Assembly: GCA_016191105.1 (NCBI GenBank)
Contig: JACPPH010000009.1
Location: 1 to 46,951 of the forward strand
DNA length: 46,951 nucleotides
DNA from: Candidatus Saccharimonadota bacterium
GTDB taxonomy: Bacteria; Patescibacteriota; Saccharimonadia; CAILAD01; BJGX01
Reading direction: 5' to 3'
The translations under genes and the position numbers were made by a program. This document shows positions 17,578 through 38,849 of the stretch, in pieces. The first letter of the stretch is position 1, and every line of letters starts with the position of its first letter. The notes beneath the pieces were generated by a model. The model ran no database searches, was not told the DNA's origin, and saw only the letters and a program-made list of their open reading frames with translations.

Positions 17578-17652
17578 TGGCTGGGGCGGTAGGATTCGAA
17601 CCTACGATCTCTTGAGCCAGAATCAAGCGCCTTACCACTTGGCCACGCCCCA
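17578..17652 (-). tRNA. tRNA-Gln (anticodon CUG), CCA encoded
   Basis: The reverse complement TGGGGCGTGGCCAAGTGGTAAGGCGCTTGATTCTGGCTCAAGAGATCGTAGGTTCGAATCCTACCGCCCCAGCCA folds as a cloverleaf. It has a U1-A72 pair as in E. coli tRNA-Gln, anticodon loop TTCTGGC and T-loop GGTTCGAATCC. Confidence 0.9.
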
Positions 17653-21667: not shown

Positions 21668-22357
21668 CTATTTTTCGTACTTTTCGAGCGCCTTGGCGGC
21701 GGCGGCCTGTTGGGCAGCCTGTTTACTGCTGCCGCCACCCTTGCCAAGCAGTTTTTTGCCCAAGTAAACACCCATTATAAACTGCTTGTCGTGATCTGGG
21801 CCAGACTCCTCGAGCACCTGGTAGCTAGGGGTAATGCCGTCCCGCTCCTGCGCGATCTCCTGAAAATGACTTTTGGCATCAATATGGGCGCCCTCTTTTA
21901 AAATTCCAGGGAGCTTTACAATTATATGATCATGAATAAACTTACTTGCAGCATCGTAGCCGGTGTCCATATAAATGGCTCCGAGCGTGGCCTCAACTAG
22001 GTTGGCCAAAAGAGCTACCCGGTTTCGGCCGCCGCTTTTAGCCTCGCCGCGACTCATGAGCAGATATTGGCCTAGGCCTAAGATCTCGGCCAGTTCGGCT
22101 AGACTCTCAGTTTTTACCAGAGCCGATCGCCAGCTGGTTAGTTCGCCTTCGGGTTTGTCGGGATAGCTGCAGAATAAATAGTCGGTAACTACCAATTCGA
22201 GCACAGCATCGCCCAAAAACTCCAATCGCTCATTGTGTTCAATTTTGGCTCGACGGTGCTCATTAAGATAGCTTCGGTGGGTAAAAGCCGTTTTTACTAG
22301 TTCGGCATCTTTAAACTTTATGCCCAGCACTTTTTCAACTTCGGCTTGATTAAACAC
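21668..22357 (-). CDS. rnc: Ribonuclease III
   Basis: It has the NERLEFLGDAVLE signature and a C-terminal dsRBD. Confidence 0.9.
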   Translation of the reverse strand: MFNQAEVEKVLGIKFKDAELVKTAFTHRSYLNEHRRAKIEHNERLEFLGDAVLELVVTDYLFCSYPDKPEGELTSWRSALVKTESLAELAEILGLGQYLLMSRGEAKSGGRNRVALLANLVEATLGAIYMDTGYDAASKFIHDHIIVKLPGILKEGAHIDAKSHFQEIAQERDGITPSYQVLEESGPDHDKQFIMGVYLGKKLLGKGGGSSKQAAQQAAAAKALEKYEK

Positions 22358-22961
22358 GGGCTTTGGCCTCCAGACGATTAATAGCTTCTCGCAAAATTAC
22401 TCTTGTTGCTTTGTATTCCAGTATCTCATAAGCTTTTTCGGCTTCAAACCACTTAACAGCCACTATGCCTTCGGAGTTTTCTGGCACCACTGCCTCGGTG
22501 TGATCGAGTGATTCGATCATGAATACAAAGGTTGTCATAAATATCAGCTTGCCATTCATGCGATAAAAAAAGTGAATCTTGTCGAGTTTCTCAACAATCT
22601 TAAGCTCGTGCAGACCGGTTTCTTCGCCAATTTCACGCAGCGCAGTTTGCTCTAGGGTTTCGCCCGATTCAACATGGCCTTTTGGAATACTCCAGCGGCC
22701 TTTTACATCTTGCAGCAAGAGCACCTGGAGTTCGCCATCGACAAAGCGATAAACAATGCCGCCGGCCGTATACTCACGGATGGCTTTGGCGCGATTGTTG
22801 TTTTGGCTTGGCTTGCGCCGGCGCCTATTTGGCTTCTGCTTGTTGCTCGGAGTCGTCTGTTGAATCTGTGGAGTCGGTTTTGGTTTTTGACTCTGGTTTG
22901 GATTCGGACTTGTCTGGAGTGTTGGCTTCGGCCTTAGCTTTTTTGTCTTCTTCTGGTTCAT
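22350..22961 (-). CDS. NUDIX hydrolase with a basic low-complexity N-terminus (start uncertain: 22961, 23000 or 23030)
   Basis: It has the Nudix box [23 protein letters not shown]. No in-frame start codon lies downstream of the nusB stop, so it must overlap nusB. Confidence 0.75.
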
Positions 22962-23394
22962 AAAAATCACTCTTTCGATAAATCGTACCCAGCACGCCAT
23001 TAATAAACTTGCTGGAGTTTTCGCCACCAAAGGCCTTGGCTAACTCCACAGCTTCGTTAATGGCAACTTTGGGCGGAACATCGCGCTTAAGCATTAGTTC
23101 GTAAATACTCATACGCAATATGGCTTTGTCGACCTTGGCAATTTGTTCAATCGGCCATTCTGGTGCTGCCGGTGTAATTATGTCGTCAATCTTCTTTTGG
23201 TCTCGAATGGTGCCGCGCACAAGATCCTCGATAAAATCTTTCTCACCGGCAGCATCTTCGTAAACGGCAATGTTACGGGCCAGGATCTCGTCGATACTGG
23301 TCTTGAGTTCGGTCATTTCCAAGGCACTGCGAAAGTCGTATTCGTATAGACTCTGTAAGGCAATTATTCGACATAAATGGCGATTGCTGGCCAT
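22825..23394 (-). CDS. nusB: Transcription antitermination factor NusB with an acidic low-complexity C-terminal tail
   Basis: It has [13 protein letters not shown] and [26 protein letters not shown]. Confidence 0.85.
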
Positions 23395-23786: not shown

Positions 23787-24314
23787 CTACTTATCGGCCG
23801 GGCGTACCATCTCTACGGTGGGCATCTTATCGTGGTGCAGAGGTAACTCTTTATCGGTTTTAGCAAAACCGTATCTCTGGTAAAAGCGTAGTGCTCTATC
23901 GTTGTAAGCAGCAGCTGCCAGTTTTGAAGGTTTGGCCGGATCCAGCCAGGCTAAGAAACCATCCATAAGCTCGTTAGCAATTCCGCTGCCTTTAGCAGAA
24001 TCTAATAGGTAGATCGCCTGCAGATCATTAAACTCATCTATTTTTTCGGCAATAAAAAAGCCAACTACCTCACCAGCTTTGTTCTTAACAACCTTATACA
24101 TAACTTTTTCTGGATTGGCCTGGGCTTCGGCTATGCGCTTACGTCGAAACTCGTTACCCTCTTCTTTGGCGACCTTGCCCATTTTTTCATTAATAAATGC
24201 AGAATTAATTCCAAGCTCGTGATTTATATAGGTCTCGTGCCAAGATTTTAAATGCATCGGCCCTATAGCAACCGCGTCATTTTGCGTTGCGTCTGAAACT
24301 GTATATTCGCTCAT
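23787..24314 (-). CDS. GNAT family N-acetyltransferase
   Basis: It has a DSAKGSGIANELM (Q/RxxGxG/A-like) motif and the RFYQRYGF ending typical of GNAT. The junction with the upstream gene is ATGA. Confidence 0.75.
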   Translation of the reverse strand: MSEYTVSDATQNDAVAIGPMHLKSWHETYINHELGINSAFINEKMGKVAKEEGNEFRRKRIAEAQANPEKVMYKVVKNKAGEVVGFFIAEKIDEFNDLQAIYLLDSAKGSGIANELMDGFLAWLDPAKPSKLAAAAYNDRALRFYQRYGFAKTDKELPLHHDKMPTVEMVRPADK

Positions 24315-25198
24315 TGCTTGGTAATCATCCTTAATACCGCTTGGCCAGTCGACCCTCTGACTGGCCCCATGGGTATTGTGTTGTAATCCAGACCCAGCTG
24401 TTCTTTGAGTTCGTTAAACTCTGAGTCTGCATAGGATAGCCGGTCTGTAATTTCCGACCGACCCGACACCGTATCTACCACCATGTCAGCTAGCGAATCT
24501 TTCCAGCTGGCATAGCTCCTTAAAACATCGCCATGGCTGCCAGTAACAAAGCCGTCCATGTAGACGCCGGGGGATTTTAGGGTCCGCGATAGTTCAGTAA
24601 TAAAATCAATTGATTTTGTTCGGTCAAGCGAGAAAATCAGTCCGCAACTAGTAACAAGATCGAAACTCTCATCTCTAAAAGGCAACCTGGTTACGTCGGC
24701 TGCAACCAGCCCAATCTTATTTTTTGTTCTCTCGCGGGCAATAGTGAGAAACTCTGTGCTTCGATCGAGCCCTGCAAAAGAATCACAAAAACCCGCTAGC
24801 CTCTTTGCCAACACACCGGTGCCCGTACCCAAATCAATGCCTTGGCCAAGTTTTGCCCGGTGTCTATTTATAACCTTTTGCATAAAGTCAGTGATGCTCT
24901 CTACAATTGTTGGGCTGCTGAAACCATAAAGCTCATCAAACCAGAGCTTGCCAGTAGGGCTGGGCTCTAGCGTCTGTAAATAGCGTTCCACTGGCGTATC
25001 TAAATGACGAACTGCCTCTGCAAAACCAATGAGTTGGTCGGCCGATATGCCTCTTAGGCCTTTTTCTAAACCCCTTTCTTCTGACTCTCGTGCTAGTGCA
25101 TAAACTGTTTGCCAAGTTTGTTCGTTCTCTACATCGGCAGTTTCTAAAAACTCCTGGCGCTTTTCTGGCGTAGTATCGGCAGAATATAGTTCACTCAT
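24311..25198 (-). CDS. Class I SAM-dependent methyltransferase
   Basis: It has motif I IDLGTGTGVLA, the acidic GLDRS after beta2 and FDLVTSCG. The junction with leuS is ATGA. Confidence 0.8.
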   Translation of the reverse strand: MSELYSADTTPEKRQEFLETADVENEQTWQTVYALARESEERGLEKGLRGISADQLIGFAEAVRHLDTPVERYLQTLEPSPTGKLWFDELYGFSSPTIVESITDFMQKVINRHRAKLGQGIDLGTGTGVLAKRLAGFCDSFAGLDRSTEFLTIARERTKNKIGLVAADVTRLPFRDESFDLVTSCGLIFSLDRTKSIDFITELSRTLKSPGVYMDGFVTGSHGDVLRSYASWKDSLADMVVDTVSGRSEITDRLSYADSEFNELKEQLGLDYNTIPMGPVRGSTGQAVLRMITKQ

Positions 25199-28074
25199 TG
25201 CTTGGTCACAAAGTTAACTAATCGACCTGGCACAACTACAGCTTTTACAATCTCGGCACCACTAGTCCAGCTAAGTTCGTCATTCTTAATGCGGGCCTCA
25301 GTTTCAATGGCTTTGGCATCAGCGCCAGCCTCAACCACAAACTCCCCGCGTAGTTTGCCATTTACCTGCACTACAATTGTAACCACGTCATCTTTTACTA
25401 ATTCTGGATCGTACTTGGGCCAAGACTGCAAATGGATGCTCTCGGTGCGGCCAAGCTGCTCCCACAACTCCTCGGCTATGTGAGGTACAAACGGCGCAAG
25501 GATTTGCAGCAAGCTCTCTATTGCAAGCGTCCACTCTGGCGACTTTTGCACACTATAATCACTCTTGTGTTTATAATACTCATTGGTCGCCTCCATAATT
25601 GCAGCTATGGCGGTGTTGAACTTTTCGCCCCCAATATCTTGAGTAACTTTTTTGATTGATTTGTGAGCAGACCTTGTAATGGCAGTGCCGGCTATAGGTT
25701 CAGTTTTGTTACCTTCCGCTGCCATGTAAGCCTGGGTCAAGCTCCAGACTCGACTCAAGAAACGATATGCACCGGGTACACCTTGTGGATCCCAAAGTAC
25801 ATCTTGCTCAACAGGGGCAGCAAACATTTCGTACAGCCGTAAAGCATCGGCACCGTTTTGCTCAATCACCTCCAATGGATCAACACCATTGCCTTTGCTT
25901 TTACTAAAGGCCGAGCCGTCCGGGGCTTTGATTTTGCCATTGTAGACCATCTTGTCGAATGGCTCGGGGCTGTCCACTAAGCCAAGTTTGTGGAAAAACC
26001 TTGTGAAGAATCGTGCATACAGCAAATGAGCCGTAGCATGATCGCCGCCATTGTAAAAATCTACGGGCATCCATTTTTTTGTAAGTGCTGGGTCCCAGGC
26101 TTGAGTATCGTCGTGTGGACTCAAGTAACGCAAGAAGTACCAGCTAGAGCAAACGTAGCCATCCATGGTGTCGGTCTCGCGCTTACCCATCTTTCCACAT
26201 GTCGGACAGGGAGCATTTACCCAGCCTTCTACGCCCGCCAGTACCGATACATTCCCGCCGGTAGGCTGGTAGTCCTTTATTTCGGGCAGCAACACTGGCA
26301 AATCTTTTTCAGGGACTGCTACTGCACCGTGTTCTTCGCAGTGAATAATTGGAATTGGTGCTCCCCAATACCGCTGACGGCTAATCAGCCAATCGCGCAT
26401 CTTGTATTGCACTTCTGGTTTAGCCAGCCCTTTTTTGCTCAAGAATTCAGTAATCTTTTCTCGGGCTTGGACCGAACTCATGCCGTCAAATTGGTCAGAG
26501 TTGTAAAGCACCCCATCGCCAGTAAATACCATGCGGGCAACAAACTTGTCATATACGTAGCGATGCAGGGGATCAACCACCTCTGTTTCGGCTTTGTCTT
26601 TGCTGATCCATTCAACCTTAAACTTATCTTTTTCATTATCTTCGAGCTGTTGGCTTTGGCGATTATCGCTCTTTAATCGGAAATGGACAGCCTTAGTGTG
26701 GGCAATTGTGGCCTGCTTTTTGGAATGCGCATAGTAGTGGTGGTGAATTGTTTCGTCACCTATCTCTATCAGCTCTAAGTCTGCGTAACCAGTCTCTTCA
26801 GCTACTTCGCGCTTGGCGGTTTTAACCGGATCTTCACCCTCTTCGACCGTACCGCCAACCAGTAAGCGCCCGCCAAGCTTTGGACCCCAGTTTATGGTCA
26901 AAACTTCGCCCTTAGCATTTTCCACCAAGGCCACAATCTTGCCCTTTTCTTTAGGCTCTTTTTGTTCACTGCCAGTTACAGGCTCAACCGAGGTCTTGAG
27001 TGGAATCTTATGCTTCATAGCGAATTCCACATCGCGTTCATCGTGGCCATCACCAAAAACCGCGCCTGTGCCATAGCCACCCAACACAAAGTCAGCTACC
27101 CAAATCGGCATTCTTTCACCACTGGCCGGGTTGGTTGCATAACTACCAGTAAAAACACCGGTCTTTTCTTTGGCCTCTTGACGGTCAACGTCGGTCTTAA
27201 CCACAGCCTGCTTGGTGTATTGTTCAACCTCGGCTTGCTTGTCATTTGTAGACAGCTCTTTGATTAGTGGGTTCTCAGGTGCCAACACTATAAACGTGCC
27301 GCTGTAGATTGTGTCTATTCGAGTAGTGTAGGCTTCAATGGTCTTGCTTGAATCCTCAATCGGAAACTTAACCAAAACACCTTGGCTACGACCAATCCAG
27401 CTTTTTTGCGAAGCTTTGACCGACTGGGTCCAGTTAAGATCATCTGTGGCCTTGAGCATCTCATCGGCATAATCAGTAATCTTAAAAAACCACTGCTTTA
27501 AGTTCTTTTTGGTTACTAGTGGATCATCCGGACCGTCATGACGCCAACACTTGCCATTTATTACCTGTTCGTCTGCTAAAACAGTCTTGCACTGATCGCA
27601 CCACCATTGAGCACTTTCTTTTTGATAAGCAAGCTTGTGCTCAAACAGCTTGGTAAAGATCCATTGCGTCCATTTGTAATACTCAGGGTCGGTCGTGTTG
27701 ATCTCTTTGCTCCAGTCGACCGCCCAGCCCATGGCTCGATATTGCTTTTGGTATTTAGCGATAGCTTTTTTGGTAGATTCTTGGGGTGAAACTCCCGTCT
27801 TGATAGCAAAGTTCTCGGCTGGCAAGCCAAATGAGTCCCAACCTACTGGCTGATACGAGGCATGGCCTTGTTGTCGCTTAAATCGAGTTATTACATCAGA
27901 AATCGTGTAATTGCGTACGTGCCCAACATGTATACCAGCGCCGCTTGGGTAATTAAACATACCAAAGCCATAAAACTTAGGATTTTTGCTGGCTAGGTCG
28001 ACAGAATAAATGCCTGTGTCTTGCCAGATTTTTTGCCATTTCGGCTCGATTGACTTAGGATCGTATTTTTTCAT
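25195..28074 (-). CDS. leuS: Leucyl-tRNA synthetase carrying an inserted Nudix-box domain
   Basis: It has HVGH (HIGH), FSKSK (KMSKS) and the CP1 editing motifs TTRIDT and GTGAVFGDGHDERD. At 959 aa it is about 100 aa longer than E. coli LeuRS. Confidence 0.95.
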   Translation of the reverse strand: MKKYDPKSIEPKWQKIWQDTGIYSVDLASKNPKFYGFGMFNYPSGAGIHVGHVRNYTISDVITRFKRQQGHASYQPVGWDSFGLPAENFAIKTGVSPQESTKKAIAKYQKQYRAMGWAVDWSKEINTTDPEYYKWTQWIFTKLFEHKLAYQKESAQWWCDQCKTVLADEQVINGKCWRHDGPDDPLVTKKNLKQWFFKITDYADEMLKATDDLNWTQSVKASQKSWIGRSQGVLVKFPIEDSSKTIEAYTTRIDTIYSGTFIVLAPENPLIKELSTNDKQAEVEQYTKQAVVKTDVDRQEAKEKTGVFTGSYATNPASGERMPIWVADFVLGGYGTGAVFGDGHDERDVEFAMKHKIPLKTSVEPVTGSEQKEPKEKGKIVALVENAKGEVLTINWGPKLGGRLLVGGTVEEGEDPVKTAKREVAEETGYADLELIEIGDETIHHHYYAHSKKQATIAHTKAVHFRLKSDNRQSQQLEDNEKDKFKVEWISKDKAETEVVDPLHRYVYDKFVARMVFTGDGVLYNSDQFDGMSSVQAREKITEFLSKKGLAKPEVQYKMRDWLISRQRYWGAPIPIIHCEEHGAVAVPEKDLPVLLPEIKDYQPTGGNVSVLAGVEGWVNAPCPTCGKMGKRETDTMDGYVCSSWYFLRYLSPHDDTQAWDPALTKKWMPVDFYNGGDHATAHLLYARFFTRFFHKLGLVDSPEPFDKMVYNGKIKAPDGSAFSKSKGNGVDPLEVIEQNGADALRLYEMFAAPVEQDVLWDPQGVPGAYRFLSRVWSLTQAYMAAEGNKTEPIAGTAITRSAHKSIKKVTQDIGGEKFNTAIAAIMEATNEYYKHKSDYSVQKSPEWTLAIESLLQILAPFVPHIAEELWEQLGRTESIHLQSWPKYDPELVKDDVVTIVVQVNGKLRGEFVVEAGADAKAIETEARIKNDELSWTSGAEIVKAVVVPGRLVNFVTKQ
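26530..26979 (-). other. Roughly 150-aa Nudix hydrolase-like domain nested inside leuS (residues about 366-515)
   Basis: GTVEEGEDPVKTAKREVAEETGY (nt 26788-26856) is a perfect match to G-x5-E-x7-REUxEExGU. The insert lies between KHKIPLKTSV and GVLYNSDQFDG, which are about 20 aa apart in E. coli LeuRS. Confidence 0.75.
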
Positions 28075-28577: not shown

Positions 28578-29603
28578 TTAAACATGTCGGATTTTTTTGC
28601 GGGCAACTTCCACAGCCAGATTCAAAGCGTACTTAGTTTTGTTAACCACTAAGTCTTGGGCGTGCAAATACTCGACATCTTCACCACCAAAGCCGCGCTT
28701 GAAGACCGATACCCCATGGAATCTGTGGCTAGCCTCGCCCGCCGGCGCTACCCCCCAGAAGTTATAGCGACTCATGCCGCGCTTTTTGGCCTCACGAATA
28801 GCCTGCCACTGAATAAGCGGTGCGCCAGGATACTTGCGGCCTTCAAGAGTGCTGGCACCATAATGATAAGCAGCCTCTTCCCCATAAAATATCACAAATG
28901 CTTGGGCCAACAACTTGCCGTCGCGATGTGCGCTATAGAGTTTAGCCATGTCGTGCTCGGCAAAGGTCCTGAATTGCTTCTCTAGAAAGTCATAGCTAAA
29001 CGGCACAAAACCCTGGCGCTTGGCCGTCTCCATCTGTAGATCATAAAAGGCCTTAAGATCTTGAGGACTCGATGACTGGCTAACTTTTACACATTGCTTG
29101 ATGGCTTTGCGAATCTCATAGCGGGTTTGCTGACGCATATCTGCCATAATTTCATCTTCGGATTTGCTAAGATCAAGTTGGCTGGTTAACTCGGCTGAGA
29201 GGTGCATTGGACTCGGCCGAAAGCCGGCTTGAGCAAAGATAGTTTTCGCAAAGTCATTGCTGATTAACTGCGGTCGAACCCGGACAAATACACACTTTTG
29301 ATCGTTAATCAGCTGCCGCAGAGATTCAGCCCAGATCCTCACCAGGTTTTGGTTGTGCCAATCTAATATTGGCCCACCAGCAACCGCCATATAGCGTCCA
29401 CGCCGAGCCGCTTCGGTTACACTCAACATCACACCTGCCAGCTTACTTCCTTCAAAGTAGCCTAGGCGATGTATATTTTTGCCTAGAGATTTGTTAAATT
29501 CACCCCAATACCACGATTGTAAAAAATTAGCCTCAGGGTGCTTAGCTAAAAAAGCCTCCCAAACTTTCTCTTCTTCAATTGTTTTAATTGTTATTGCTGG
29601 CAT
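28578..29603 (-). CDS. FemX/FemAB-family aminoacyl-tRNA-dependent peptidoglycan peptidyltransferase
   Basis: The N-terminus is WEAFLAKHPEANFLQSWYWGEF. The protein is about 340 aa with C-terminal FKRGFGG. Confidence 0.8.
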   Translation of the reverse strand: MPAITIKTIEEEKVWEAFLAKHPEANFLQSWYWGEFNKSLGKNIHRLGYFEGSKLAGVMLSVTEAARRGRYMAVAGGPILDWHNQNLVRIWAESLRQLINDQKCVFVRVRPQLISNDFAKTIFAQAGFRPSPMHLSAELTSQLDLSKSEDEIMADMRQQTRYEIRKAIKQCVKVSQSSSPQDLKAFYDLQMETAKRQGFVPFSYDFLEKQFRTFAEHDMAKLYSAHRDGKLLAQAFVIFYGEEAAYHYGASTLEGRKYPGAPLIQWQAIREAKKRGMSRYNFWGVAPAGEASHRFHGVSVFKRGFGGEDVEYLHAQDLVVNKTKYALNLAVEVARKKIRHV

Positions 29604-30784
29604 TGGTTTATAACTTCGCTTATTTTCTGAGCCAGGCCGGGAGTTATCTGTCTGTGAGTTGGCAGATTAATAATTTGTCTGCACAGCTTCTCGGCATTGG
29701 GGCATTGGCCGGTTTTGTAGGTAGTTGCGCTCATATAGCGAGGTGGTGCGATTGGTGTGTCGTACCATGTATCAGTTATATATATGCATTGTTTGGCCAG
29801 CTCGGCAAAAACCTTATCGCGATCCTTAACGACTGCTGGGAAGCGCAAGCATGACGATTTAGCAAGTTTACTCGAGGCCAGAAGTTGTACTGAACTATCA
29901 AAATTATCTGCATAGACCTTGGCCAAATTCTGACGTCGGCTCAGTTCCGAGGACAAGTCTTTGAACTGGTTTAGGGCGAGCCTGGCCTGCCATGCAGAAA
30001 TAGCATGACCCTCGTAGTATTCGGCGTCGACCGAGCGCGAAAGCAGACCAAGTTTCTTGAACAAACTGTGCAAGAGTTTTCCTATGCCAAAAATGCCATA
30101 AAAAACTCGGACTTTCCAAGTTAGTATTGGGTACAAGCAGTCGCGCATGCGGGCTGAGGCTGGCGGCTTAGACAGCCTAAATTGATCTAGCTTTTGGTAT
30201 TTGCCGGTGCGAACCACGAGTGCCCCGCCCGACACCGCATCGATCAGCTTATCGCGGCCAAAGCTGAGCATGGCAAAATCACCAACAGTGCCGACTTCGC
30301 GCCCATCGGCATATTTGGTTTTAACACCGTGGGCCAAATCTTCGATCAAAACAAGCCCGTGCTCTTTACAAACTTTTTCGATACCGGCAATATCGCACGG
30401 CACGCCAAGAGTATTTTGAATGATCACCGCCTTAACTTTTGCATTCTTACTAACAGCTTGCTCAAGTTGAGTTGCAGAGAATTGTAGTCCGCCAGGCTCT
30501 ATGTCGACAAACTCCGCTTCGCACCCGGCATAAGTCACTGCTCGATAGACCGCATAGCAAGTAAAGCCATTAATTGCAACTGCTGAGCCTTTCGGTAGAT
30601 CGCTTAATTTGACTGCTAGCTGCAAAGCCTCGCGACCTTTGTATGTCAGTAGCGCCTTACCAGCATAGGTTTTTTCGAGTTCGCCTGTGAGTTCTTGTGT
30701 GGCCGTTTTAGAACCAATCCCAAAGAAAGCCCGCCAGATTTCTGAGGCACTATAATTTGAGCCCAGGGAGTTGAAAATGCTCAC
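29591..30784 (-). CDS. DegT/DnrJ/EryC1/StrS-family PLP-dependent aminotransferase
   Basis: The fold-type I layout is present, with SFGRDKLIDAVSGGAL (Lys-containing PLP motif). Confidence 0.7.
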   Translation of the reverse strand: MSIFNSLGSNYSASEIWRAFFGIGSKTATQELTGELEKTYAGKALLTYKGREALQLAVKLSDLPKGSAVAINGFTCYAVYRAVTYAGCEAEFVDIEPGGLQFSATQLEQAVSKNAKVKAVIIQNTLGVPCDIAGIEKVCKEHGLVLIEDLAHGVKTKYADGREVGTVGDFAMLSFGRDKLIDAVSGGALVVRTGKYQKLDQFRLSKPPASARMRDCLYPILTWKVRVFYGIFGIGKLLHSLFKKLGLLSRSVDAEYYEGHAISAWQARLALNQFKDLSSELSRRQNLAKVYADNFDSSVQLLASSKLAKSSCLRFPAVVKDRDKVFAELAKQCIYITDTWYDTPIAPPRYMSATTYKTGQCPNAEKLCRQIINLPTHRQITPGLAQKISEVINQCQQ

Positions 30785-31475: not shown

Positions 31476-32759
31476 CTATAGTCCCCAAGCCCTTCGGCGT
31501 TTTACCCAAACAGCCTCACGTCGGCATAGCTTTGCGGCATCGGCCTTATCTTTTAGTAGGTGCTCAATTACGCCTTCTAAAAAGCGGGTGCCCTTAAATA
31601 GAATCGTCTCGCCACCTGTTAGCTCTGACTCTAGTATGTCTAAAACCTCGCGCGGTGTCTTCACAGCAGTGTGTTCGACCTTGAGTTGGGTCAAAACTGG
31701 CGAACAGAACTTTTTGCAACGTGGCCCCATAACAATAATCTTATCAAACTTATACTTTGCAATGTCGCGGGCTAACTGCTGGTGCACTTTTTGCTCACTT
31801 TCGCCCTGCTCCAAAACGTCGCTAATTACTACCCATTTTTTAGGCACATCGAGGCTAGCAAACATATTCAAGATGGCCTCAGCCGCATCTAACGAGGCGT
31901 TGTAGGTGCCGTCTATTAAGGTAGTGTTTTTAATGCCTTTGAAGACTGAGCTGCGACCTGGTGGGGGCAGAAAGTTCTTGAAATCCTTGTCGAACTTAAA
32001 GTTAAGGTTGAAACAAAGTATCAAAGTAGCGAGAGCTGATAGGCCAGCCTCCTCAGGAACTAGCGATGGAATGGTAAACTCTTTTGGTAATTGTTTAAAG
32101 TTTCCTTCGTGGGTGAATATTGTGGACTCTAGACCTGGCCGGTAGCTAACTATGTTTTTACTAGAAACCAGAATATTCTCTTTTGGCCCCAGTCCGGGTT
32201 CACTCTGTTTAGTTATGTCCGGGTTATCTCGATTTAATATTGAAAGCTCCGATGTTGCTCTTAAGATGTGTCCATATTCAAAAGCAATCGCTTGCTCGAC
32301 ATTGTTGAATTTACCGCTTTTAACCAGCTTATCGAAATTCATAGCATGGGTTTGGGTGCTGGATAGCCAAATTACACCATTCGGTCGTAATAGCTCAGCC
32401 AAGAACTTACCTTCGCCTGGCCGATCACAATCAACCTCAACCACATAGATACTCTGTTTATGTATGCCCTTGAATGCCTTAAATGGTGCCTTGGAAATTA
32501 AACTTAACCACTCTGTCCGTTTCAATTCCTTGCGACTTAGGCCCAAGATATCGAATGGCACACCAAAACTGCTGTTAGCCTTATGCGAGTAGCGAGCCTT
32601 GCTGCCTAGCTGCGCCTCAGCCAAATGAAGCATGGTGGTTTTGCCGCTGGAGCCAGTAATCACAAATACTTTTGGGCGCCAGCGCTTTAACTGGATCTTG
32701 GCCCAAAAACGAAAATATCGAGCTGCCACAAAATAGAGGCGCTTCTTCAATGGACTCAT
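31476..32759 (-). CDS. Mur ligase family protein lacking the N-terminal UDP-binding domain
   Basis: It has the VITGSSGKTT P-loop and central and C-terminal Mur-ligase-like regions. SD AGGAGAA precedes the start. Confidence 0.7.
   Translation of the reverse strand: MSPLKKRLYFVAARYFRFWAKIQLKRWRPKVFVITGSSGKTTMLHLAEAQLGSKARYSHKANSSFGVPFDILGLSRKELKRTEWLSLISKAPFKAFKGIHKQSIYVVEVDCDRPGEGKFLAELLRPNGVIWLSSTQTHAMNFDKLVKSGKFNNVEQAIAFEYGHILRATSELSILNRDNPDITKQSEPGLGPKENILVSSKNIVSYRPGLESTIFTHEGNFKQLPKEFTIPSLVPEEAGLSALATLILCFNLNFKFDKDFKNFLPPPGRSSVFKGIKNTTLIDGTYNASLDAAEAILNMFASLDVPKKWVVISDVLEQGESEQKVHQQLARDIAKYKFDKIIVMGPRCKKFCSPVLTQLKVEHTAVKTPREVLDILESELTGGETILFKGTRFLEGVIEHLLKDKADAAKLCRREAVWVKRRRAWGL

Positions 32760-38772: not shown

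Positions 38773-38849
<77 letters not shown>

Follow-up and report, generated by a model that had tools for sequence, protein, structure and literature searches.

In a 46,951-nucleotide stretch of contig JACPPH010000009.1 from a Candidatus Saccharimonadota bacterium (the window, by which we mean this whole stretch), an open reading frame (ORF) on the reverse strand at 25195..28074 encodes a bacterial-type leucyl-tRNA synthetase (LeuRS) of 959 amino acids (aa), and within this synthetase we found a complete Nudix domain. The host gene, leuS, was identified by the NCBIfam model for bacterial leucine--tRNA ligase (TIGR00396, leuS_bact), which scores 910.3 bits against a cut-off of 548.4 and matches in two stretches with the insert between them. 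Pfam recognizes the class I catalytic domain, the anticodon-binding domain and the editing domain PF13603. A model of the whole protein built with AlphaFold2 (AF2) from 96 homologues reached a pLDDT of 90.4 and a pTM of 0.81, with the blocks of the insert at 87-94, and in Foldseek it matched the LeuRS of E. coli, T. thermophilus and Neisseria with TM scores of 0.77-0.86. The HIGH motif reads HVGH (aa 49-52; 27919..27930, on the reverse strand like all features of the gene given below), with H49, G51 and H52 invariant. The N-terminal part of the CP1 editing domain (aa 224-363, 26986..27405, assigned from PF13603 and its motifs) carries the T-rich motif TTRIDT (aa 250-255, 27310..27327) and the editing motif GHDERD (aa 343-348, 27031..27048). 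Both motifs are invariant in the 96 homologues, including the editing residues T250, T251, D254, T255, H344, D345 and D348. The KMSKS-equivalent loop is AFSKS (aa 722-726, 25897..25911), in which Ala stands in place of a first Lys that is not conserved in the clade, while the second Lys, K725, is invariant across the family. The original prediction, made from the letters of this stretch, had taken the HIGH, KMSKS and editing motifs all to be intact; this holds for HVGH, TTRIDT, GHDERD and the second Lys of the KMSKS loop, but not for the first. From the intact motifs, and from orthologous synteny with leuS genes that have no Nudix domain, we infer that this is the ordinary, functional leuS of the organism, competent in leucylation and editing. 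The NCBI product name for LeuRS of this kind is just 'class I tRNA ligase family protein'; the apparent reason is that the match to the LeuRS model is broken in two by the insert.

The Nudix domain, recognized by PF00293, AF2 and Foldseek, occupies aa 364-520 (157 aa, 26515..26985) and lies between two landmarks: the segment ending in ...GDGHDERDVEFAMKHKIPLKTSV, whose last residue is aa 363, and the segment GVLYNSDQFDG, whose first residue is aa 521. In the alignment with E. coli LeuRS, the corresponding IKPVI (356-360) and GVLFNS (379-384) are separated by 18 residues, and the insert stands in place of this loop (361-378), inside the CP1 editing domain. PF13603 matches aa 224-373 with an E value of 5e-52, covering profile positions 1-150 of 185 only, and the C-terminal part of CP1 (aa 521-560, 26395..26514, GVLYNS...QYKMR), which aligns to E. 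coli 379-418, follows the insert. Since PF13603 continues after the insert, the Nudix domain is nested in CP1 and CP1 is nested in the Rossmann fold, giving three nesting levels. The insert matches the Pfam profile PF00293 (NUDIX) at aa 381-510 (E 2.2e-13); the match spans profile positions 7-133 of 134, and its score of 50.8 bits exceeds the cut-off of 21.1. Such a near-complete match above threshold means that the Nudix box GTVEEGEDPVKTAKREVAEETGY (aa 408-430, 26785..26853), which conforms perfectly to GX5EX7REUXEEXGU, is no chance motif. The original prediction had put about 150 extra residues at nt 26530-26979, with a perfect box at nt 26788-26856 and the E. coli landmarks about 20 residues apart, and had read them as a complete Nudix domain within LeuRS; the profile search bears out this reading, and the coordinates given here replace the earlier ones, those of the box differing by 3 nt.

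Structure prediction, which had been named as a way to check the assignment, also returned a Nudix fold. Modelled in isolation by AF2, the insert reached a pLDDT of 93.1, and when this model was searched against the PDB with Foldseek, the best 50 of 521 matches (E <= 0.001) were all Nudix enzymes, with TM scores of up to 0.78; together, the two analyses predict an alpha/beta/alpha Nudix fold. Compact Nudix hydrolases were matched with E values from 4e-9 to 7e-8. The top match (E 4e-9) was 2AZW, an E. faecalis Nudix protein without known function, and the Ap4A (diadenosine tetraphosphate) hydrolase of Aquifex (3I7U) superposed on the domain model with a TM score of 0.77 and a root-mean-square deviation of 2.8. 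The matches also included E. coli RppH, among them its complex with Ap4A (7SP3, TM about 0.67), and the ADP-ribose pyrophosphatase of T. thermophilus. A single-sequence search of the PDB reached only matches at the level of the Nudix box, so that a profile search was needed; with the insert as profile, the best matches were again 2AZW (E 3e-8), together with the lupin Ap4A hydrolase 1F3Y (E 5e-7) and AvrM14. None of the solved LeuRS structures matched in Foldseek, all of 876 aa or fewer, has a Nudix insert. These results establish the identity of the domain, its fold and its exact insertion site.

We also considered whether the insert might be an artefact of assembly, a frameshift or a chimera, or an element that, like an intein, is removed by splicing. 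The ORF is unbroken and without frameshift over its whole length, its GC content runs evenly at 0.44-0.53 with no break in composition at the borders of the insert, and the same architecture is found on more than 100 independent contigs, some of 0.5-0.8 Mb, so that the frameshift or assembly fault at the borders that the original prediction had allowed for is not present. The insert opens with EPVTG and closes with FTGD followed by G, and has neither the N-terminal Cys, Ser or Thr nor the C-terminal His-Asn plus Cys, Ser or Thr of intein splice junctions. No evidence was found in support of these readings, with ORF, composition and junction residues all contrary to them, and we rejected both as practically inconceivable.

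The nested domain is strongly conserved at its active site. In a set of 130 nested Nudix domains, G408, E423, E426 and E427 are present in every sequence (130/130), R422 in 123 and E414 in 117. Downstream of the box, K452 and W489 (98%), an aromatic pair at 447/448 (98%) and E481 (93%) are also kept. Overall identity between clusters of nested domains is often below 20% despite these fixed residues. All the clusters keep the motif [YF][YF]xxxK...E...W, which a profile alignment makes visible in 2AZW too, and this common motif argues for one diversified family of nested Nudix domains rather than many unrelated captures. In the comparison with the nearest relative (L081, 85% identity), nonsynonymous divergence (dN) is 0.087 for the insert, 0.092 for the remainder of LeuRS and 0.114 for the N-terminal editing part. 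With a synonymous divergence (dS) of about 1.7, omega for the insert is about 0.05, which indicates that the module is maintained as an enzyme. Strong purifying selection thus acts on the module and on its catalytic glutamates, and the nested Nudix is apparently active, as read from the invariant E423, E426 and E427 and from the low omega.

Another way to read the domain is as a non-catalytic one, a Nudix fold that serves as a structural, tRNA-binding or ligand-sensing (NrtR-like) modulator of LeuRS. This would agree with the weakened box seen in a minority of clusters, where R422 is changed to A, N or T, or E414 to Q (for example L016, L018, L023, L034, P0010 and P0055); the three glutamates are kept in these proteins. 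NrtR-type sensors typically have degenerate boxes, but the box of the window protein is perfect, the changes at R422 and E414 are limited to a few other lineages, and all 130 sequences retain the metal-binding glutamates E423, E426 and E427. We therefore rejected an NrtR-like sensor for the window protein and regard a non-catalytic role as very improbable.

The architecture is widespread in Saccharibacteria and in other candidate-phyla (CPR) lineages, from which we collected at least 130 LeuRS with a Nudix domain at this site. A search with the full protein returned dozens of LeuRS of 952-996 aa that contain PF00293, at 52-85% identity and from Candidatus Saccharimonadales where a source is named, as well as sibling LeuRS of ~815-866 aa without a Nudix domain and forms of ~1085-1132 aa that carry more. 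Scanning GTDB species representatives gave 80 loci, about 45 of them with a Nudix domain at the same site. By their deposited labels, which are unverified, the Nudix-bearing loci include Dojkabacteria (L032), Magasanikbacteria (L064, L065 and L080) and metagenome-assembled genomes (MAGs) labelled Bacilli, Gammaproteobacteria and Bdellovibrionales. According to the original prediction, orthologues sharing a lineage-wide insert without a Nudix fold would have counted against it; the insert is indeed lineage-wide, but the fold is Nudix. When the insert profile was run against 1.84 billion representatives, we obtained 2481 matches at E <= 1e-3 and 311 at E <= 1e-10, and 19 of the 20 long top matches tested were LeuRS or LeuRS fragments. 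A word-index search with the insert only found just a 94-aa fragment, which reflects the limit of sensitivity of that search and not rarity, because the full-length and profile searches found hundreds. Free-standing relatives of ~150-200 aa exist under generic names only. The sole non-LeuRS host among the 20 long matches, P0178 (1318 aa), is a fusion of the form GNAT-Nudix-GNAT-M17 (leucyl aminopeptidase).

Among closely related leuS genes the module is interchangeable, like a cassette: some have Nudix domains of unrelated type, and others have none. In a tree built from the LeuRS core, presence, absence and type of the Nudix domain are interleaved, and at least 14 sequence clusters can be distinguished among the inserts at this one site. 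The insert diverges faster than the core, with a mean identity to the window protein of 41% versus 59%. Distances between inserts are hardly correlated with distances between cores (Spearman 0.13, n=130); the N-terminal editing part, used as a similarly sized control segment, gave 0.44. Of the pairs whose cores are at least 86% identical, 22 differ in the type or the presence of the cassette. In the pair L034/L035, the flanking 25-residue windows are 84-100% identical and the insert 4-28%. The leuS DNA of L016 and L025 shows 86-100% identity in the flanks and only 31-63% over a block of about 540 nt, while L018 and L039 are 85-100% identical save for an indel of about 470 nt. The boundaries of the cassette are sharp and lie at the conserved flanks ...LPI..VI and GEG.L.NSG. 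Exchange, loss and duplication of the cassette probably proceed by homologous recombination through the leuS flanks in co-occurring lineages. The existence of close sister LeuRS without a Nudix domain means that LeuRS does not need the module; P0013, for instance, has a natural short loop (SGGDTSKQAY) in its place. The same follows from the locus, which is orthologous in both groups of lineages, the synteny leuS...nusB-nudix-rnc being alike with and without the nested domain.

Relatives carry further modules in their LeuRS. In proteins of ~1130 aa (P0014, P0032, P0025, P0062 and P0121), a second Nudix domain lies ~30 residues after the first, before KVNYxxRDW, and P0122, P0123 and P0144 have three Nudix domains, two of which precede the editing domain. 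An alpha/beta serine hydrolase (PF06821) is present besides the Nudix domain in L058 (3977-7543), L064 (3992-7414), L079 (3944-7480), L080 (3638-7162), P0167, P0129, P0130 and P0150, inserted after the re-entry into the catalytic core or, in P0167, before the editing domain. Two modules were seen in a single example each: a Ham1/ITPase domain at aa 984-1167 of P0233 (1330 aa), and a DUF559 Vsr-like endonuclease at aa 278-390 of P0165, a 672-aa LeuRS fragment, where it stands before the editing domain. This endonuclease could bear on the mobility of the cassettes. The LeuRS of an Anaerolineae MAG (L052:3977-7111) carries a ~120-aa non-Nudix insert with no Pfam match at the very same loop of CP1, which suggests that this loop is a general insertion hot spot. 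Additional segments of ~120-190 aa with no Pfam match were noted before or early in the editing domain of L034 (3980-7240) and L078 (2568-6032), in which PF13603 begins, at profile position 19-21, only at aa 362 and aa 421, respectively. The CP1 region of CPR LeuRS may be a dedicated docking platform for interchangeable hydrolases (one to three Nudix domains, serine hydrolase, Ham1, DUF559) that are recombined between lineages with the active site fixed, an as yet unrecognised modular polymorphism of an essential translation enzyme, perhaps driven by conflict (over toxins or over nucleotide signals of phage or host) or by quality control of tRNA ends or nucleotides that is physically coupled to the charging of tRNA(Leu). 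We put this forward tentatively, as possible but short of probable.

In the window, leuS is followed on the same strand by genes for a class I S-adenosylmethionine (SAM) methyltransferase (24311-25198) and a GNAT acetyltransferase (23787-24314), and the 4-nt overlaps between starts and stops make it probable that the three genes form one operon. L081, the closest relative, has no methyltransferase gene between leuS and the GNAT gene, which there adjoin directly. A standalone Nudix gene (22350-23030, reverse strand; PF00293, E 2.6e-19) lies about 2.2 kb downstream of leuS, flanked by nusB (22825-23394) and rnc (21668-22357), and nearly all Saccharibacteria loci have an equivalent gene at a distance of 1-4 kb downstream of leuS, both where LeuRS contains a Nudix domain and where it does not. 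We rejected the idea that the nested domain is a recent copy of this gene: the two are merely 29-34% identical, which places their relationship at the level of superfamily or subfamily. The upstream genes, also on the reverse strand, encode an alpha/beta hydrolase with a weak match to PF06821 (30781-31509), a FemAB-family peptidyl transferase (28578-29603), a DegT-type aminotransferase (29591-30784) and a Mur ligase (31476-32759). The alpha/beta hydrolase was considered as kin of the serine hydrolases nested in LeuRS and rejected, the match (E 0.008) being confined to the nucleophile-elbow motif. Rfam and tRNA scans of the window revealed just tRNA-Gln(CTG) (17578-17652) and tRNA-Ala(GGC) (38773-38849), both on the reverse strand, and neither RNase P RNA nor tRNA-Leu, which could have informed a hypothesis on action at tRNA ends.

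This neighbourhood is relevant to an explanation in which the nested hydrolases, the Nudix domain among them, serve to neutralise an antibiotic, a toxin based on nucleotides or a signalling molecule of phage or host, an arms race driving the turnover of the cassettes and their diversification outside the active site. Such a conflict would be consistent with at least 14 clusters that occupy one site with an invariant active site, with the recent swaps and losses between near-identical hosts, and with the many combinations of hydrolase modules, one variant of which includes the DUF559 endonuclease; structurally similar Nudix proteins are, moreover, encoded by many phages. However, the neighbours of leuS are housekeeping genes and the window offers no defence-island context. 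The Spearman coefficient of the control segment is itself just 0.44, so leuS is partly mosaic on its own account. To our knowledge, no toxin connects Nudix domains with LeuRS. We consider this explanation unlikely.

What the nested domain acts on can be approached from its nearest families. It stays below the cut-offs of all the NCBIfam equivalogs (RppH, NudB, YtkD, NudE and MutT), with at most 35 bits against 103-154; the best score is 34.9 against 103 for NudB, with 23-24 against 116-118 for RppH and 25 against 154 for YtkD. Among the type-A inserts, sub-threshold matches were obtained to NudB and RppH in 24/24 and to YtkD in 21/24. The domain is closest to enzymes of the RppH, NudB, YtkD and Ap4A-hydrolase type, but by these scores it is a member of none of the curated families. 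The sequence leans towards substrates with a polyphosphate chain, which may be NTP-like, NpnN- or Ap4A-like, or 5'-triphosphate or capped RNA, and ADP-sugars are less likely. The aromatic pair Y447/Y448, 17-18 residues past the box, may correspond to the Tyr marker of ApnA hydrolases, which we treat as a lead only; the Tyr of the TYDF motif in the lupin Ap4A hydrolase aligns two positions before the pair.

A functional coupling to the synthetase has to be weighed at this point. The original prediction had suggested that the synthetase may contain its own hydrolase, directed at Ap4A, at mis-activated adenylates or at inhibitors that mimic adenylates; this idea is only weakly favoured, by nearest structures that include Ap4A hydrolases and RppH. 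Aminoacyl-adenylates are a chemically unlikely substrate here: Nudix substrates need a pyrophosphate bond, and aminoacyl-adenylates have none; nor are phosphoramidate inhibitors Nudix-type substrates. In a coupled enzyme, the tethered Nudix domain would cleave products of the synthetic site (Ap4A, Ap3A and Ap4, formed from Leu-AMP with ATP, ADP or PPPi), or would act on the CP1-bound acceptor end of tRNA(Leu), at a 5'-triphosphate or an Np4 cap. The position of the module is suggestive, because the CP1 domain that carries it is mobile and handles the acceptor end of tRNA. The closest enzymes by fold and family also agree, namely RppH (with Ap4A in 7SP3), the Ap4A hydrolases 3I7U and 1F3Y, and two enzymes that take pyrophosphate off triphosphate ends, YtkD and NudB. 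This Nudix subfamily is almost confined to LeuRS, where additional copies lie around the same CP1 domain. On the other hand, sister lineages with 86-95% identical cores have no module, so that LeuRS works alone; LeuRS is a weak producer of Ap4A; the co-nested Ham1 and serine-hydrolase modules do not suit a story specific to Ap4A; and very divergent Nudix types take each other's place in the exchange of the module. On balance coupling seems doubtful, although less so than the conflict described above.

The explanation that we favour, with a probability of roughly 45%, is that an autonomous, active Nudix enzyme of the house-cleaning type resides in a permissive loop of CP1 and is exchanged by recombination. 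A self-contained Nudix pyrophosphohydrolase would sit in this surface loop of the editing domain and would hydrolyse nucleotide-polyphosphate substrates on its own account. By residing in an essential gene, it would gain constitutive co-expression. Its catalysis would be dispensable for aminoacylation and editing, and the cassettes would probably turn over by homologous recombination through the conserved leuS flanks. We lean towards house-cleaning because of the modules found in the LeuRS of relatives, a Ham1/ITPase domain in P0233 and, in others, an alpha/beta serine hydrolase or two to three Nudix domains, and because the best sub-threshold matches of the type-A inserts are NudB, RppH and YtkD. 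Several observations weigh against this explanation. Equivalog scores of no more than 35 bits where 103-154 are required, and a best structural match, 2AZW, without known function, give no substrate assignment. A hitch-hiking module does not account for a subfamily almost confined to LeuRS (19/20 of the long top matches), for the clustering of insertions around CP1 or for the fast diversification outside the active site. Finally, the presence of a standalone Nudix gene 2 kb downstream means that extra house-cleaning capacity is not obviously needed.

A comparison with known systems places the protein among bacterial LeuRS (4AQ7, 4ARC and 2BTE), with which it shares a Rossmann core with HIGH and KMSKS-like loops, and ZN1, CP1, anticodon-binding and C-terminal domains. 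It differs from the E. coli and T. thermophilus enzymes in having a 157-aa Nudix domain for the 18-residue loop 361-378 and AFSKS for KMSKS. The nested domain, in turn, has the canonical box, the ~150-aa alpha/beta/alpha sandwich and the downstream conserved Glu and aromatic residues of compact Nudix hydrolases (2AZW, RppH, 3I7U and 1F3Y), from which it is set apart by an identity of only 15-24%, by being nested and not free-standing, and by its own [YF][YF]xxxK...E...W motif. Class I synthetases with an extra feature include an isoleucyl-tRNA synthetase (IleRS) with an N-acetyltransferase domain (NF040702) and the self-immunity LeuRS AgnB2 (5AH5). Unlike in these enzymes, the addition described here is a hydrolase nested in the editing domain, polymorphic and swappable among close relatives; in AgnB2, no domain has been added. 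Inteins and homing elements resemble the cassette in being patchy at one conserved site of an essential gene, with a history discordant with that of the host and with sharp boundaries, and the DUF559 endonuclease module of one relative is a further likeness to homing elements. In contrast to inteins, the module has no splice residues, is under purifying selection as an enzyme and was modelled within the mature protein.

A 2026 survey of domain insertions reported the editing domain PF13603 to be insertion-exclusive, with zero host events of 213 (PMC13114784), and the Nudix domain nested in PF13603 is a counter-example to this result. As for the architecture, the original prediction had known of no described LeuRS of this kind, and our full-text searches of the literature brought up no report of a Nudix domain in any bacterial aminoacyl-tRNA synthetase, LeuRS included. 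The component families are already known; what is new is the cassette behaviour of the nested Nudix in an essential translation enzyme.

Domain accretion in aminoacyl-tRNA synthetases is well known in eukaryotes, while the bacterial enzymes are usually regarded as architecturally fixed, and an intact second enzyme within the editing domain is an exception to this fixed architecture. The gain, loss and swap of a cassette between near-identical leuS genes is likewise unusual for an essential housekeeping gene, and makes these cassettes a tractable system for the acquisition and exchange of nested domains. If the Nudix domain acts on Ap4A, on capped or triphosphorylated RNA or on damaged nucleotides, translation would be tied to nucleotide quality control, and this tie would concern the ultra-small CPR symbionts, which depend on salvaged nucleotides.

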